Shown here: positions 5,112 to 9,072 of the stretch, piece after piece
How the letters are laid out: every line of letters begins with the position of its first letter
Position numbering within the stretch: position 1 is the first letter of the stretch
Assembly (NCBI RefSeq): GCF_045037415.1
Contig: NZ_CP173438.1
Reading direction: 5' to 3' (one strand)
DNA from: Escherichia coli
Lineage (GTDB): Bacteria > Pseudomonadota > Gammaproteobacteria > Enterobacterales > Enterobacteriaceae
DNA length: 64,000 nucleotides
Translations under genes and position numbers: made by a program
The notes under the pieces: generated by a model
Seen by the model: the letters and a program-made list of their open reading frames with translations, nothing else
The model's database searches: none
What the model was told of the DNA's origin: nothing

Positions 5112-5858
5112 ATGGAACAAGCGCATACCCAGCTGATTGCCCAACTGAACGAGCGTATTTTAGCGGCGGATAACACGCCGCTTTATATTAAGTTTGCCGA
5201 AACGGTAAAAAATGCCGTGCGCAGCGGGGTGCTGGAGCATGGCAATATTTTGCCCGGTGAGCGTGATTTAAGTCAGTTAACCGGCGTTTCGCGCATTACG
5301 GTGCGCAAGGCGATGCAGTCGCTGGAAGAAGAGGGCGTGGTGACGCGTTCGCGTGGTTACGGCACGCAGATCAACAACATCTTCGAATACTCGTTGAAAG
5401 AAGCGCGAGGTTTTTCTCAGCAGGTGGTGTTGCGCGGGAAAAAGCCCGATACGCTATGGGTTAACAAGCGTGTCGTGAAATGTCCCGAAGACGTCGCGCA
5501 GCAGCTGGCGGTCGAGGCAGGAAGTGATGTTTTTTTGCTTAAGCGTATTCGCTATGTCGATGAAGAGGCGGTATCGATTGAGGAATCGTGGGTTCCGGCA
5601 CATTTAATTCATGATGTTGATGCCATCGGGATTTCTCTTTATGACTACTTCCGCAGCCAGCACATTTACCCACAACGTACGCGTTCCCGCGTTAGCGCCC
5701 GGATGCCGGATGCCGAGTTTCAGTCACATATTCAGTTAGATAGCAAAATACCGGTGCTGGTGATCAAGCAAGTGGCGCTTGACCAACAGCAACGGCCTAT
5801 TGAGTACAGCATCAGCCACTGTCGCAGCGATCTATACGTTTTTGTGTGCGAGGAGTAG
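5112..5858 (+). CDS. yegW: GntR-family transcriptional regulator (YegW), 248 aa
   Basis: N-terminal wHTH (LPGERDLSQLTGVSRITVRKAMQSLEEEGVV) plus UTRA-like C-terminal domain; convergent with yegV. Confidence 0.8.
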   Translation: MEQAHTQLIAQLNERILAADNTPLYIKFAETVKNAVRSGVLEHGNILPGERDLSQLTGVSRITVRKAMQSLEEEGVVTRSRGYGTQINNIFEYSLKEARGFSQQVVLRGKKPDTLWVNKRVVKCPEDVAQQLAVEAGSDVFLLKRIRYVDEEAVSIEESWVPAHLIHDVDAIGISLYDYFRSQHIYPQRTRSRVSARMPDAEFQSHIQLDSKIPVLVIKQVALDQQQRPIEYSISHCRSDLYVFVCEE

Positions 5859-6797
5859 TTCCTCGCGCGTTGGCGCACAATCACCGCCCCGATGCCCGAC
5901 AACCCACGACGCCACTGCATTGCCCAGTAATACGGCATCCGCCAGTGGCAGACCAGAGGCCAGCCCGGCAAGTACGCCGCCGGCATGACTGTCGCCCGCC
6001 CCAATGGTGTCTACAACTTGCGTTGGAAATGCCGGAATGCAGCCAGAAGCGTCGTTGCTGAAATACCATGCGCCCTCTTTATCGAGACGAACGATCAACG
6101 GCGCGGCAAATTTCTCCTGCCATTGCTTGCCAAGTGTTGTTATCTCTGCGGATAAAGCAAAACGTTCGGCGGCAATCTCAGCCTCTTGACGATTGAGTGA
6201 CACTAAAGGTCGACAGGCCATGATCCGCGCCAGTAATGCATCCGGGATATCGCCAATACGTGGGCCAAAATCGATAAATGGCGTCACGTCTTGCAGCTCT
6301 TCCAGCCATTCCACTAACAATTCGCCGCAGGGCGAGGCCAGTTGATAACCGGAAAAATAGAGCAGGCTGCCAGGCGCAACGGTTAATCGCGCCAGCCATT
6401 CGCGATTCCACTGATTTTCCACACCACTGAATGACATAAAAGTGCGTTCGCCATCCGGCTCAACCAGCGCCAGACACCAGCCGTTATCGCCTTCAGCGTT
6501 ATCGATCAGGCTGATTAACCCCTCTTTCGCCATCCGGTTGCGAATAATCTCCGCCCACACGCCCTGACCGAGCGGCAGGGCATTACCCGCTTCGATGCCG
6601 AGGCGCTTTAACGCCACGGCAATATTCAGTGCGCAGCCGCCAACGTTAACGCTCTGCTGTTTCAGTTCGATATCGCACCCACGCCAGGGCAGAGCGTAAG
6701 CGTCGGCGATCACATCAATGACCGCCGCGCCGACGACCATCACTGGCTGACGCGTGGTTAATTCAGGCAGCAGCGTGTGTAATCGAGCGCCGCTCAT
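5832..6797 (-). CDS. yegV: PfkB-family sugar/nucleoside kinase (YegV), 321 aa
   Basis: Ribokinase-like fold with GAGD motif (DTIGAGDSHAGG); overlaps the yegU stop. Confidence 0.8.
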   Translation of the reverse strand: MSGARLHTLLPELTTRQPVMVVGAAVIDVIADAYALPWRGCDIELKQQSVNVGGCALNIAVALKRLGIEAGNALPLGQGVWAEIIRNRMAKEGLISLIDNAEGDNGWCLALVEPDGERTFMSFSGVENQWNREWLARLTVAPGSLLYFSGYQLASPCGELLVEWLEELQDVTPFIDFGPRIGDIPDALLARIMACRPLVSLNRQEAEIAAERFALSAEITTLGKQWQEKFAAPLIVRLDKEGAWYFSNDASGCIPAFPTQVVDTIGAGDSHAGGVLAGLASGLPLADAVLLGNAVASWVVGHRGGDCAPTREELLLAHKNV

Positions 6798-7798
6798 ATC
6801 GCCTCCCGTTGTTGACGATATTTCGCCAGCGCTGTGGCATAGCGGTTGAAATCAAGCTGATTTACTGCATCCAGTTCCGCCTTTAACGCAGGATCGATAG
6901 CGTTAACGCCATGCAACGCGCCGCAAATTGCCGTCGCCATAGCACCGATGGTGTCTGTGTCGCCGCCAAGGTTAGCGCACAGGACGGCGCAACGGTTCGG
7001 GTCGGTTTGTGCCAGTTCAACCAGCGCAATGGCGCACGGAACGGACTCAATAGTACTGGTACCTGCGCCAACGACCTGGTAAAGCTGTTCGCTGGCGGAT
7101 TCGGTGCCATCGGCATTGCGCACAATTTTCAGCGCAATCTCCAGACGTGCTGCCAGTGAGGCGCTGAAGGTAGTGATGCGTTTTTGTTGAGCATGTCGCG
7201 CAATTGAAGGCAGTGAATCAACAATCGCTGACCAGCTTTCTCCGTCAATGGCACGAGAAATCGCCCATGCGATGACTACCGCCCCCGCAACCGCCAGATC
7301 GGATTTATGGGTCGGGCTGGAGGCCAGCGCCACATCATCAATAAAGGAATCAACATCGCGCGCCGGAAGCAAACAACCTAATGGCGAGACGCGCATCGCT
7401 GCGCCGTTGGTCACGCCGTTATTTTCCAGTTCAGCAACGGGTTTACCGTCGCGAATGGCGTTAAGCGCAATCTTCGAGGTCGGACCTAGTACGTTTTTGT
7501 TAAAGGCGTCGAAACGCAGCGCCCAGCCGAGAATATTACGCCCAATCAGATCCGGATCGATCTTGCCTTCACGTTCCAGTAACGCATCCGCCAGACACAG
7601 CGCCATCGAGGTATCGTCGGTGAATTCGGCGCGGTTAAAATAACAGGCCGCGTTATTCTCCTTTGGCCCAGGCAGAAAACGGTCAATCCAGCCAAAGTGT
7701 GCTTTGACGCGACTGCGCGGCCAAAGCTCGGAGGGCATCCCCATCGCATCCCCTAACGCCTGCCCATAAAGAGCACCGAGAATACGTTCTGTTTTCAT
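6794..7798 (-). CDS. yegU: ADP-ribosylglycohydrolase-family protein (YegU), 334 aa
   Basis: Length and composition consistent with the ARH/DraG-like family; assigned mainly by synteny in a yegT-yegU-yegV operon. Confidence 0.75.
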   Translation of the reverse strand: MKTERILGALYGQALGDAMGMPSELWPRSRVKAHFGWIDRFLPGPKENNAACYFNRAEFTDDTSMALCLADALLEREGKIDPDLIGRNILGWALRFDAFNKNVLGPTSKIALNAIRDGKPVAELENNGVTNGAAMRVSPLGCLLPARDVDSFIDDVALASSPTHKSDLAVAGAVVIAWAISRAIDGESWSAIVDSLPSIARHAQQKRITTFSASLAARLEIALKIVRNADGTESASEQLYQVVGAGTSTIESVPCAIALVELAQTDPNRCAVLCANLGGDTDTIGAMATAICGALHGVNAIDPALKAELDAVNQLDFNRYATALAKYRQQREAI

Positions 7799-9072
7799 TT
7801 AACTTCCCCTTGTGTCAACGCAATATCGCGATCATCGACCTTGATAGCCGTAATTTCGTTGTCGGATTCGCGGAAAAAAATCATGAACAGCACGGCGATA
7901 ATGGCAATCATCACCGCGCCGAAAGTCCACATCCCGGCCCAGTTGAAAGTCAGTCCGTTTACCGGTTCCTGATAAGCGAACATCTTTTCCATCATCACAC
8001 CGCCAAGACGATAGCCGAGCAAACTGCCGAAGCCCTGGCAGCAGAGCGTGATCAGCCCCTGCGCGGCGGTACGCATATGCACGGGAGCTTTTTTATCGAC
8101 ATAGATGTAAGCGGTAACGTAGTAAAAATCGTAACTTACGCCGTGCAGCAAAATACCGAGGAACAGTAACGCGTAGGTGAAATATTCATCCGCACTACCG
8201 TAAATAAAGAAGCCATAGCGGATCGCAGCGGTGACCAGACCAAGCAACAATACCTTTTTGATACCAAAGCGTTTAGTGAAAAACGGCAATGCCAGCATAA
8301 AGAAGATTTCAGAGAACTGGCCGAGCGTCATCCAGCCAGTGGCGTTTTTCATGCCAACTTCGGTCAGATAACCGTTGGCAAAGATGTAATAGAACGCCAG
8401 TGGCATCGCAAACAGGAATGAACAGAAGAAAAAGACGAGGAAGTTTTTATCGCGCAGCAGGATCAGCGCATCCAGGCCGAGCATGACTTTAATATCCATT
8501 TTGCCGGTGCTTTTTGGCGGCGTGTCGGGCAGGAAAAACGCAAACACACCGAGCAGAGCAGAACTTCCGGCGGTAATCAGTAGCGGGATGTTAGTCGGTG
8601 AGATATCGGCATAACCCAGCATTTGCGGCAAGAATCCACATGCCAGACCAGAGGCAATCCAGCCGATAGTGCCCATCACACGAATGCGTGGGAAATCACG
8701 CTCCACATCCGGCACGTTGGCAAAAGCGATACTGTTAGTCAGCGCAATGGTCGGCATATAGGTTAGCGAGTAGGCCAGCAGTAACGGGAAGAACCCGGCA
8801 AAAGTGGTCTGTTGCGCAGCGAAATACATCAGTACCGCGCCAGCGAACATCAATACCGCCAGCACTTTCTGCGCCGAGAAAAAGCGGTCAGTGATGGAGC
8901 CAACCAGAATTGGCGACAGGATCGCCGCAATGGCGGTACAGGCATACGACCAGCCAATTTCTCCGGCACTAAAACCGCTTTTACTTAACCACAACCACAA
9001 TGGCACAAACCACGCGCCCCAGATAAACCATTCAACAAACATCATGAACGACAGCTTTGCTGTTGTTTTCAT
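7795..9072 (-). CDS. yegT: MFS nucleoside:H+ symporter-family transporter (YegT), 425 aa
   Basis: Polytopic membrane protein; first gene of the minus-strand yegTUV operon. Confidence 0.8.
   Translation of the reverse strand: MKTTAKLSFMMFVEWFIWGAWFVPLWLWLSKSGFSAGEIGWSYACTAIAAILSPILVGSITDRFFSAQKVLAVLMFAGAVLMYFAAQQTTFAGFFPLLLAYSLTYMPTIALTNSIAFANVPDVERDFPRIRVMGTIGWIASGLACGFLPQMLGYADISPTNIPLLITAGSSALLGVFAFFLPDTPPKSTGKMDIKVMLGLDALILLRDKNFLVFFFCSFLFAMPLAFYYIFANGYLTEVGMKNATGWMTLGQFSEIFFMLALPFFTKRFGIKKVLLLGLVTAAIRYGFFIYGSADEYFTYALLFLGILLHGVSYDFYYVTAYIYVDKKAPVHMRTAAQGLITLCCQGFGSLLGYRLGGVMMEKMFAYQEPVNGLTFNWAGMWTFGAVMIAIIAVLFMIFFRESDNEITAIKVDDRDIALTQGEVK

Follow-up and report, generated by a model that had tools for sequence, protein, structure and literature searches.

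What does the yegTUV operon of Escherichia coli act on? The question is raised by positions 5112-9072 of a 64-kb stretch of E. coli DNA (contig NZ_CP173438.1; the whole stretch is called the window below). Here yegT, yegU and yegV, with the convergent gene of their repressor, yegW (ggaR), encode a nucleoside:H+ symporter (NHS) permease, a protein of ADP-ribosylglycohydrolase (ARH) fold, a PfkB-family kinase and a GntR/UTRA regulator. A previous reading of the sequence alone had given these identities and coordinates, and both hold. The open reading frames (ORFs) lie where it placed them, and a Pfam scan returned GntR (2.7e-16) and UTRA (3.9e-36) for YegW, PfkB (3.4e-56) for YegV, ADP_ribosyl_GH (PF03747, 7.5e-66) for YegU and Nuc_H_symport (1.3e-183) for YegT. 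The operon it described, with overlapping stops and starts, is borne out by two 4-nt ATGA junctions, AAATGA between yegT and yegU and ATATGA between yegU and yegV. The yegTUV/yegW locus is present in 5423 of 5426 complete E. coli genomes, under the RefSeq names yegT, yegU, yegV and yegW, and is a known, core operon with its repressor, not a new discovery.

The gene content, the operon, repression by YegW, two YegW-binding fragments and the exclusion of canonical nucleosides for YegT are already published. New here are the cross-phylum linkage and fusion of YegU and YegV, the interchange of the carriers beside them, their intact catalytic motifs and an operator motif. The 2024 GgaR paper (PMC10819704) and a 2025 annotation paper still call the YegTUV proteins uncharacterised, the latter listing YegV as an uncharacterised sugar kinase. 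Literature searches on yegT, yegU and yegV found only the GgaR paper, omics lists and YegT/NupG structure papers, and a search on ADP-ribosylglycohydrolases together with PfkB, PnuC, ribokinase or riboside found no biochemical study of such a module. The previous reading was thus right that the substrate is not firmly established: the literature searched holds no published substrate or activity for YegT, YegU or YegV. That a core operon of the best-studied bacterial genome has no assigned substrate is a true gap in knowledge.

On balance, the evidence tips towards yegTUV serving, under the control of a repressor, in the catabolism or salvage of a non-canonical riboside. YegT would import, with a proton, a riboside in which ribose is linked through C1 to an unusual aglycone. 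YegV would phosphorylate its 5'-OH and so trap it in the cell; YegU, a two-metal ARH-fold enzyme, would hydrolyse the C1 bond of the ribosyl-5-phosphate compound to ribose-5-phosphate and free aglycone, and the ribose-5-phosphate would enter the pentose-phosphate pathway. YegW would repress through an operator of three GGTAT repeats at the yegT promoter and through a weaker copy of it within yegT, and a metabolite of the pathway would free it. The phosphorylated intermediate is the most plausible such effector, with ADP-glucose a possible mimic. We infer the kinase-then-hydrolase order, the products and the effector. Candidate ribosides are pyridinium ribosides (nicotinamide or nicotinic acid riboside), modified or imidazole-type ribosides and alpha-linked ribosides from ADP-ribose conjugates. 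The salvage or catabolic pathway for a ribosylated compound that the sequence-only reading proposed is therefore supported, and its account of the locus stands, but it overlooked the published GgaR repressor with its ADP-glucose response, the YegT structure 8ZOJ and the exclusion of canonical nucleosides.

Linkage of YegU and YegV across phyla

A HMMER search with YegU across the whole library returned 231 representatives at E <= 1e-30. A scan with the YegU alignment, one genome per species, gave 78 loci with a yegU relative, the neighbouring ORFs of which were clustered. They span Enterobacterales, Vibrio, Aeromonas, Burkholderiales including Parasutterella, Succinivibrionaceae, Clostridia/Lachnospiraceae, Bacilli, Lactobacillales, Dialister, Actinobacteria, Chloroflexi, Ignavibacteria and Marinimicrobia. 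A YegV-like PfkB kinase lies within about 6 kb of yegU in 59 of the 78, usually adjacent or one gene away, and a GntR/UTRA regulator in 52. The carrier varies: NHS (YegT-like) transporters were found at 29 loci, NCS1 permeases (PF02133) at 17 and PnuC-like proteins (PF04973; both of two tested pass the TIGR01528 cut-off) at 14. Many of the 78 loci are from Enterobacteriaceae, so that these counts are not independent, yet the pattern still spans phyla. The pair is found in many bacteria of gut, soil and sea as well as on mobile elements of staphylococci, and a trio of ARH protein, NCS1 permease and ribokinase has been noted on the staphylococcal SCC and vSe1 elements.

The two enzymes are also physically joined. 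Among ten long YegU relatives scanned, nine are ARH-PfkB fusions, in four of which the kinase precedes the hydrolase and in five of which it follows, and one is a tandem ARH protein; in seven of the fusions the kinase domain lies nearer to YegV than to RbsK. An enzyme that would reveal the aglycone was looked for in the 78 neighbourhoods, where no further enzyme recurs and only sporadic neighbours were seen (a second ARH-like protein of large size together with an ABC permease, a gene of amidohydrolase type, TonB receptors and an MFS gene). Since no other enzyme recurs, the minimal module appears to consist of transporter, kinase, hydrolase and repressor. Kinase and hydrolase are coupled or fused while the carriers are interchangeable, which argues for two consecutive steps on a non-canonical ribose-containing small molecule. 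That the substrate contains ribose and is non-canonical is also suggested by the lack of further associated enzymes and by YegT, in which the ribose-binding residues are kept and the base pocket is changed.

The NHS, NCS1 and PnuC families each include riboside carriers. The PnuC system, in which entry is facilitated and a cytoplasmic kinase then traps the substrate, offers a parallel in the uptake of nicotinamide riboside by PnuC and NadR, and a gene of the PnuC family comes after the YegU/YegV pair in Clostridia and Lachnospiraceae. However, NadR is a P-loop kinase and not a PfkB protein, and the E. coli module uses YegT rather than PnuC. PnuC and NadR lead to NAD synthesis, whereas the YegU/YegV pair includes a hydrolase, for which breakdown is predicted.

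Several loci depart from the common arrangement. Lone yegU products from Edwardsiella and Serratia marcescens/bockelmannii (L025, L027, L028 and L036) and from Brenneria (L023) are 62-66% identical to E. coli YegU; in Edwardsiella and Serratia a yegW-like regulator is kept and phoPQ/purB adjoin. Such genes may be the remainder of a reduced module, or may encode a hydrolase with a role of its own. At two Firmicutes loci (L063, 2682-7230; L075, 6832-10990) the YegV-YegU pair is preceded by a second, much larger ARH-like protein (712-855 aa) that carries the metal motifs DDD and DTD and is lengthened by a long C-terminal segment, and L075 has an ABC sugar-type permease further upstream; the larger protein suggests that a bigger ribosylated substrate is trimmed first. 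In an Anaerolineales locus (L070, 5313-6635) a gene called by sequence inspection as a member of the amidohydrolase superfamily, with an HxH motif and a resemblance to methylthioadenosine (MTA)/adenosine or guanine deaminases, lies between yegU and the kinase gene; the family occurs twice among the neighbourhood ORFs, once here. It possibly hints at an amino-substituted heterocyclic aglycone.

Carrier, hydrolase and kinase

YegT scores 653 bits against the NCBIfam model TIGR00889 (cut-off 446), carries the ribose-contacting R/T/E residues and has the GxxxD motif of transmembrane helix 10 (TM10), all of which place it in the NHS family. Its R131 and T135 align here to R136 and T140 of NupG, and E255 and the TM10 GxxxD protonation site D315 have been described (PMC11979927, PMC8042404). 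The structure match, PDB 8zoj, is YegT itself, solved by Xiao et al. in 2025 (8ZOJ; PMC11979927). Isothermal titration calorimetry detected no binding of uridine, adenosine, cytidine or guanosine to YegT (PMC11979927), and uptake by YegT was not seen for gemcitabine, xanthosine, uridine or cytidine (PMC11241209). YegT has its family, fold (root-mean-square deviation about 1.6 A), ribose-contacting residues and TM10 GxxxD site in common with NupG and XapB, but is only 27% identical to them and differs in the base-contacting residues; the NupG structure paper likewise describes the ribose-contacting residues as identical in YegT and the base-contacting residues as different.

No solved structure of YegU or YegV was found, the nearest being MJ1187 and ribokinases, respectively. 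A Foldseek search with the AlphaFold2 model of YegU (predicted local distance difference test, pLDDT, 96.9) gave MJ1187 (1t5j) as the best match, with template modelling (TM) scores of 0.82/0.90, and ARH3 and DraG at 0.75-0.78; a Thermus ARH-like protein is also among the nearest solved structures. The all-helical fold (TM 0.75-0.82) and the metal ligands are common to YegU, ARH3, ARH1, DraG and MJ1187, the last of which is likewise without known function. The binuclear-metal ligands of ARH3 are E41, T76, D77, D78, D314, D316 and T317 (PMC9738213). An active-site comparison with ARH enzymes, suggested by the sequence-only reading and made here by alignment to ARH3 and MJ1187, found every one of them matched: E24, T60, D61, D62, D280, D282 and T283 of YegU align to them in order. 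Among 24 diverse relatives D61 and D282 are invariant and T60, D62, D280 and T283 at least 90% conserved. The T130-N131-G132 loop and the invariant His164 of YegU align with the S148-G152 loop and His182 of ARH3, which are phosphate-binding residues in that enzyme. By analogy with ARH3, ARH1 and DraG, cleavage would be expected at ribose C1 in YegU too.

The complete metal site and membership of PF03747 are also what would be expected of a true de-ADP-ribosylase, acting like DraG, ARH1 or ARH3 on protein or nucleic acid, with transporter and kinase as unrelated neighbours; that ADP-glucose, an ADP-sugar, acts on YegW fits such an enzyme as well. It is nevertheless a very improbable one. The characterised enzymes act on proteins, poly(ADP-ribose), O-acetyl-ADP-ribose or alpha-NAD, whereas yegU stands in a transport and kinase operon, translationally coupled to the permease and kinase genes, and the kinase is a conserved neighbour and physically fused across phyla. 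Neighbourhood clustering revealed no recurrent ADP-ribosyltransferase gene near the 78 yegU loci, and PADLOC gave no defence-system match for any of the four proteins. YegU scores 78.7 bits against the NCBIfam DraG model (cut-off 337) and 67.5 bits against that of Tri1 (cut-off 490). The adenine-stacking residues of ARH3, F143 and Y149, lie opposite N126 and V129 of YegU and so appear unmatched, in what is a weak comparison made over a gapped loop of a phmmer alignment of about 20% identity. In DraG the residues that bind the adenosine part are Y212 and E121.

YegV keeps the PfkB motifs G53-G54 (GG), N202/E205 (NxxE) and G266-A-G-D269 with the catalytic base. Across 52 family members these positions, like N58 and the diol-binding D28, are invariant or nearly so. 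The ribose ligands of RbsK, N14, K43 and E143 (1RKD structure), are replaced: K43 corresponds to Cys55 (Cys in 47 of the 52), N14 to Val26 (hydrophobic in the family) and E143 to Ala or a variable residue. The likeness of YegV to ribokinase/PfkB members thus holds for the catalytic motifs and fails at these ligands. The best NCBIfam and PDB matches are ribokinases, but the scores, 82.5 bits against TIGR02152 (cut-off 299.65) and 59.8 bits against NF008353 (cut-off 341), lie below cut-off. Judged in this way, YegV is not a ribokinase equivalog; with its PfkB motifs kept and the RbsK ligands replaced, it is predicted to be an active PfkB kinase of a distinct subfamily.

These matches bear on the reverse order of steps, in which YegU would release free ribose and aglycone and YegV would act as a second ribokinase on the ribose. 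This is an unlikely arrangement, if not a negligible one. Besides the ribokinases as best matches of YegV, ARH genes stand beside ribokinases in the ribose-induced ribose-utilisation (rus) loci of Bacteroidetes, some Enterobacterales keep yegU and yegW without the kinase, and one fusion, P0217, has a ribokinase-like domain. However, the score of YegV against the ribokinase model is far from the cut-off, its family (26% identity between YegV and RbsK) keeps Cys55, Cys108 and Phe120 where RbsK has its ligand residues, and E. coli already has RbsK. The T130-N131-G132 loop and His164 of YegU are also more in keeping with a phosphorylated substrate.

Several further points favour the kinase as the first enzyme. 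PnuC-type carriers depend on a cytoplasmic kinase, and need the substrate itself to be phosphorylated for it to accumulate. YegV is without the anomeric-side ligands of ribokinase. The effectors of UTRA repressors are commonly phosphorylated pathway intermediates, and the logic of the pseudouridine pathway is alike. In E. coli pseudouridine catabolism the permease PsuT (YeiM), the PfkB kinase PsuK (YeiC) and the 5'-phosphate glycosidase PsuG (YeiN) yield ribose-5-phosphate and the base, and a similar logic of permease, kinase and glycosidase is proposed here for YegTUV. In contrast to that system, YegU is of ARH fold (PF03747) and not PsuG/IndA-like, and YegT is an NHS protein while PsuT belongs to CNT. 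The yegTUV operon is best seen as a new form of the kinase-plus-glycosidase module of nucleoside catabolism, one with an ARH-fold hydrolase. Identity with the PsuK/PsuG pathway itself was ruled out by the score of YegV against the pseudouridine kinase model NF007355 (19.1 bits, cut-off 540) and by a hydrolase of PF03747.

The closest analogy for the kinase comes from Salmonella enterica, where the operon STM4065-STM4066-STM4067 combines a PfkB kinase and a putative ADP-ribosylglycohydrolase, as do YegV and YegU; the kinase is an aminoimidazole riboside kinase (1TYY). That it acts on an unusual riboside argues in turn for the kinase-first order. The two operons are not orthologous, and 1TYY matches YegV only at E 2.6e-4. 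Dougherty and Downs are said to have reported in 2003 that STM4065 is a permease and that the operon is derepressed by mutations in the adjacent regulator gene. We know of no physiological substrate for that kinase either.

The YegW repressor, its predicted operator and the balance of evidence

Saito et al. (2024; PMC10819704) renamed YegW GgaR and, by chromatin immunoprecipitation (ChIP-chip), electrophoretic mobility shift assay (EMSA), Northern blot and quantitative reverse-transcription PCR (RT-qPCR), found a single genomic target. GgaR binds a 190-bp fragment of the fbaB/yegT spacer and, more weakly, probe-5 inside yegT (ORF nt 571-869; EMSA and ChIP-chip), and represses a 3.3-kb yegTUV transcript. 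Binding at the yegT promoter, for which the sequence-only reading had suggested footprinting, had thus been published from EMSA and ChIP; the paper gives no operator sequence.

Such a sequence can now be proposed. On the minus strand upstream of yegT, O1 (AAAGGTATTTAAAAGGTATTACTAAGTGGTATTGTCATCGCGTACC) carries three direct GGTATT half-sites (9145-9140, 9134-9129 and 9121-9116) at spacings of 11 and 13 bp, the third followed by an inverted GTACC (9107-9103). A second block, O2, has the same 11- and 13-bp geometry and lies inside probe-5. In the 64-kb window GGTAT-N6-GGTATT-N7-GGT is found exactly twice, where 0.00 copies would be expected, at the yegT promoter and at 8239-8265 (yegT ORF nt 808-834), and both copies fall in the two fragments mapped as binding GgaR (PMC10819704). 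Among 19 genera of gamma-proteobacteria that were compared, most keep the block upstream of yegT; it is modified or shortened in Tatumella, Hafnia and Rahnella, and in Vibrio the third half-site is inverted. The lone yegU genes of Edwardsiella and Serratia marcescens (L025, L027) retain GGTAT/GGTAC tandems upstream, and Aeromonas and Serratia oryzae have TGGAC tandems with 11-bp phasing. At the Firmicutes loci the GGTAT operator is absent and unrelated palindromes are found instead (ACTTATTATAATAAGT; CTCATACG..CGTATGAG), which makes the motif clade-specific.

With its GntR helix-turn-helix, its UTRA domain and the operator motif at both mapped binding sites, YegW is a GntR/HutC regulator, and it has its two-domain architecture in common with repressors such as NagR, DasR, TreR, FrlR and PhnF. 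NCBIfam has no model specific to YegU, YegV or YegW; all their matches lie below cut-offs, including every specific regulator model scored with YegW. As a half-site, TGGTAT is similar to the GGT..ACC type known from the operators of NagR and DasR. The YegW operator of gamma-proteobacteria differs in being made of tandem direct repeats with 11-13 bp phasing, whereas the NagR/DasR type is a single palindrome. A consensus sigma-70 scan found no promoter in the yegT-fbaB intergenic region, so that -10 and -35 elements are not placed.

Two minor features accompany the operator. The internal yegT motif (around ORF nt 807) is kept in three Vibrio species (L021, L022, L034) and in Kluyvera and an Enterobacteriaceae isolate (L014, L032), and not in most Citrobacter or Enterobacter loci; its retention may reflect constraint on the codons or selection for a second operator. 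A conserved imperfect palindrome, AAAATGTTACCGCGGTCAAGTTTT (TGTTA-N6-TCAAG), lies at 9155-9178 on the minus strand, about 10-30 nt upstream of the first GGTATT; it has the form AAATGTTAcannGGTCA in most Enterobacteriaceae and resembles a weak CRP site. A CRP study by systematic evolution of ligands by exponential enrichment (SELEX) has a peak in the fbaB<>yegT spacer, with the yegT side not assigned.

The effector proposed by Saito et al. (2024) leads to a further explanation, in which the operon acts on or supplies ADP-glucose and YegW senses it in the control of glycogen. Several observations speak for it (PMC10819704). In vitro, ADP-glucose at 10-100 uM frees GgaR from the fbaB/yegT probe, whereas glucose and ADP do not. 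Deletion of ggaR raises yegTUV mRNA about 30-fold and glycogen 2-3-fold, with poor growth on glucose minimal medium, and the paper cites a yegV deletion as being in the list of low-glycogen mutants of an earlier screen. Nevertheless, this explanation seems improbable. The three protein families include no known chemistry that makes ADP-glucose, and its hydrolysis would lower and not raise glycogen. The EMSA controls were glucose and ADP only, ADP-ribose, NAD, AMP, other nucleotide sugars and riboside phosphates lying outside the panel. In vivo, 1% against 0.25% glucose induced yegTUV only about 3-fold, compared with the roughly 30-fold derepression in the deletion (PMC10819704). Moreover, other phyla pair the two enzymes with PnuC-like or NCS1 carriers. 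Carriers of these kinds are known for taking small ribosides and bases that are uncharged or cationic, and not for taking nucleotide sugars. ADP-glucose is likely to be a mimic of the true YegW effector, and GgaR's influence on glycogen is probably indirect: the phenotype accompanies a growth defect and may be secondary to the cost of unregulated expression. Solving yegTUV would settle whether the link between GgaR and glycogen is direct.

The preferred reading, a riboside 5'-kinase followed by an ARH-fold hydrolase, has points of its own to answer. For YegU and YegV we infer both the order of the steps and the products. The sole effector shown to release YegW is ADP-glucose, no riboside 5'-phosphate, and the rise in glycogen on yegW deletion is explained only indirectly by a riboside (PMC10819704). 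The yegU genes of Edwardsiella, Serratia marcescens and Brenneria, with no kinase or transporter within about 6 kb, fit a hydrolase working alone; the fused kinase of P0217 is the more ribokinase-like one, and the mapping of the adenine residues on YegU is weak for the reasons given above. Finally, the characterised enzymes ARH1 and ARH3 are strictly specific for the alpha anomer and take ADP-ribose conjugates as substrates (PMC9738213), whereas ordinary nucleosides are beta-linked.

It follows from the specificity of ARH1 and ARH3 that either YegU differs in anomer specificity or its substrate is an alpha-riboside. If YegU is alpha-specific, the nutrient would be an alpha-linked riboside, such as a ribosyl remnant of poly(ADP-ribose) or of an ADP-ribosylated macromolecule, alpha-nicotinamide riboside or a cobamide-type alpha-riboside; to our knowledge there is no catabolic pathway for alpha-linked ribosides. 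If it is not, a pyridinium riboside, nicotinamide riboside (NR) or nicotinic acid riboside (NaR), would be the leading candidate and YegU would be the missing gene for an activity of the nicotinamide mononucleotide (NMN)-nucleosidase type. The broader notion of a widespread and unrecognised two-enzyme route, in which a dedicated PfkB kinase makes a riboside 5'-phosphate and an ARH-fold YegU protein hydrolyses it, is put forward tentatively, with the doubts at present outweighing the support. The route would extend over Proteobacteria, Firmicutes, Actinobacteria and Chloroflexi among others, and the ARH-fold enzyme would serve small-molecule metabolism instead of the de-ADP-ribosylation of proteins. 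Solving yegTUV would for the first time assign a metabolic role to a bacterial enzyme of ARH fold and would identify a new ribose-containing nutrient or salvage substrate. The question can be tested by a short list of experiments within the present constraints: canonical nucleosides are excluded, the kinase is probably first, the carrier can be of PnuC, NCS1 or NHS type and a predicted operator is defined.

The locus and its surroundings

Coordinates of the genes and predicted operators are collected in Table 1.

Table 1. Genes and regulatory features of the yegTUV/yegW region (window positions)
Feature	Position	Strand	Description
thiD	3377-4177	+	
yegX	4233-5060	+	between yegW and thiD; GH25 muramidase-like, hydrophobic N-terminus
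yegW (ggaR)	5112-5858	+	HutC-type GntR repressor: N-terminal winged helix-turn-helix, C-terminal UTRA effector domain
yegV	5832-6797	-	PfkB-family kinase, predicted riboside 5'-kinase
yegU	6794-7798	-	ARH-fold metal-dependent glycohydrolase, predicted cleavage of ribosyl 5-phosphate C1 bond
yegT	7795-9072	-	NHS permease, predicted carrier of a non-canonical riboside
O2, predicted weaker operator in yegT	8236-8265	-	ORF nt 808-837; GGTATC-N5-GGTATT-N7-GGTCTG
yegT-fbaB divergent intergenic region	9073-9328		holds yegT promoter and predicted operator O1; ChIP-chip peak here
O1, predicted operator	9103-9148	-	31-76 nt upstream of yegT ATG; within the 190-bp GgaR-binding fragment

The convergent orientation of yegW, as previously read, is confirmed by a 27-nt coding overlap (5832-5858) of its 3' end with that of yegV, with no terminator between the two genes. 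A 2025 RNA-seq survey lists the yegV/yegW pair as a candidate "excludon", a case of mutual transcriptional interference (PMC12288877). A defence-system role for yegTUV/yegW was rejected on the PADLOC result.

Among the 78 yegU loci yegX was seen only at that of E. coli, and thiD comes straight after yegW in Citrobacter, Enterobacter, Kluyvera and others. By its distribution yegX looks like an insertion specific to Escherichia and unrelated to the operon. The linkage to fbaB and thiD is treated as synteny because it is confined to Enterobacteriaceae. Beyond yegT lies fbaB, the mechanical ORF of which starts at 9257 and encodes 374 aa. The FbaB profile aligns only from residue 25, which places the real start at 9329 (350 aa) and leaves a spacer of 256 bp, so that the bounds previously given for the yegT promoter region are correct. 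Just upstream of the true start, in the fbaB leader at 9252-9290, is a 17-nt inverted repeat, GGATTATGATTGCCCGC / GCGGGCCAGGACAATCC, 76% complementary and with a 5-nt loop.

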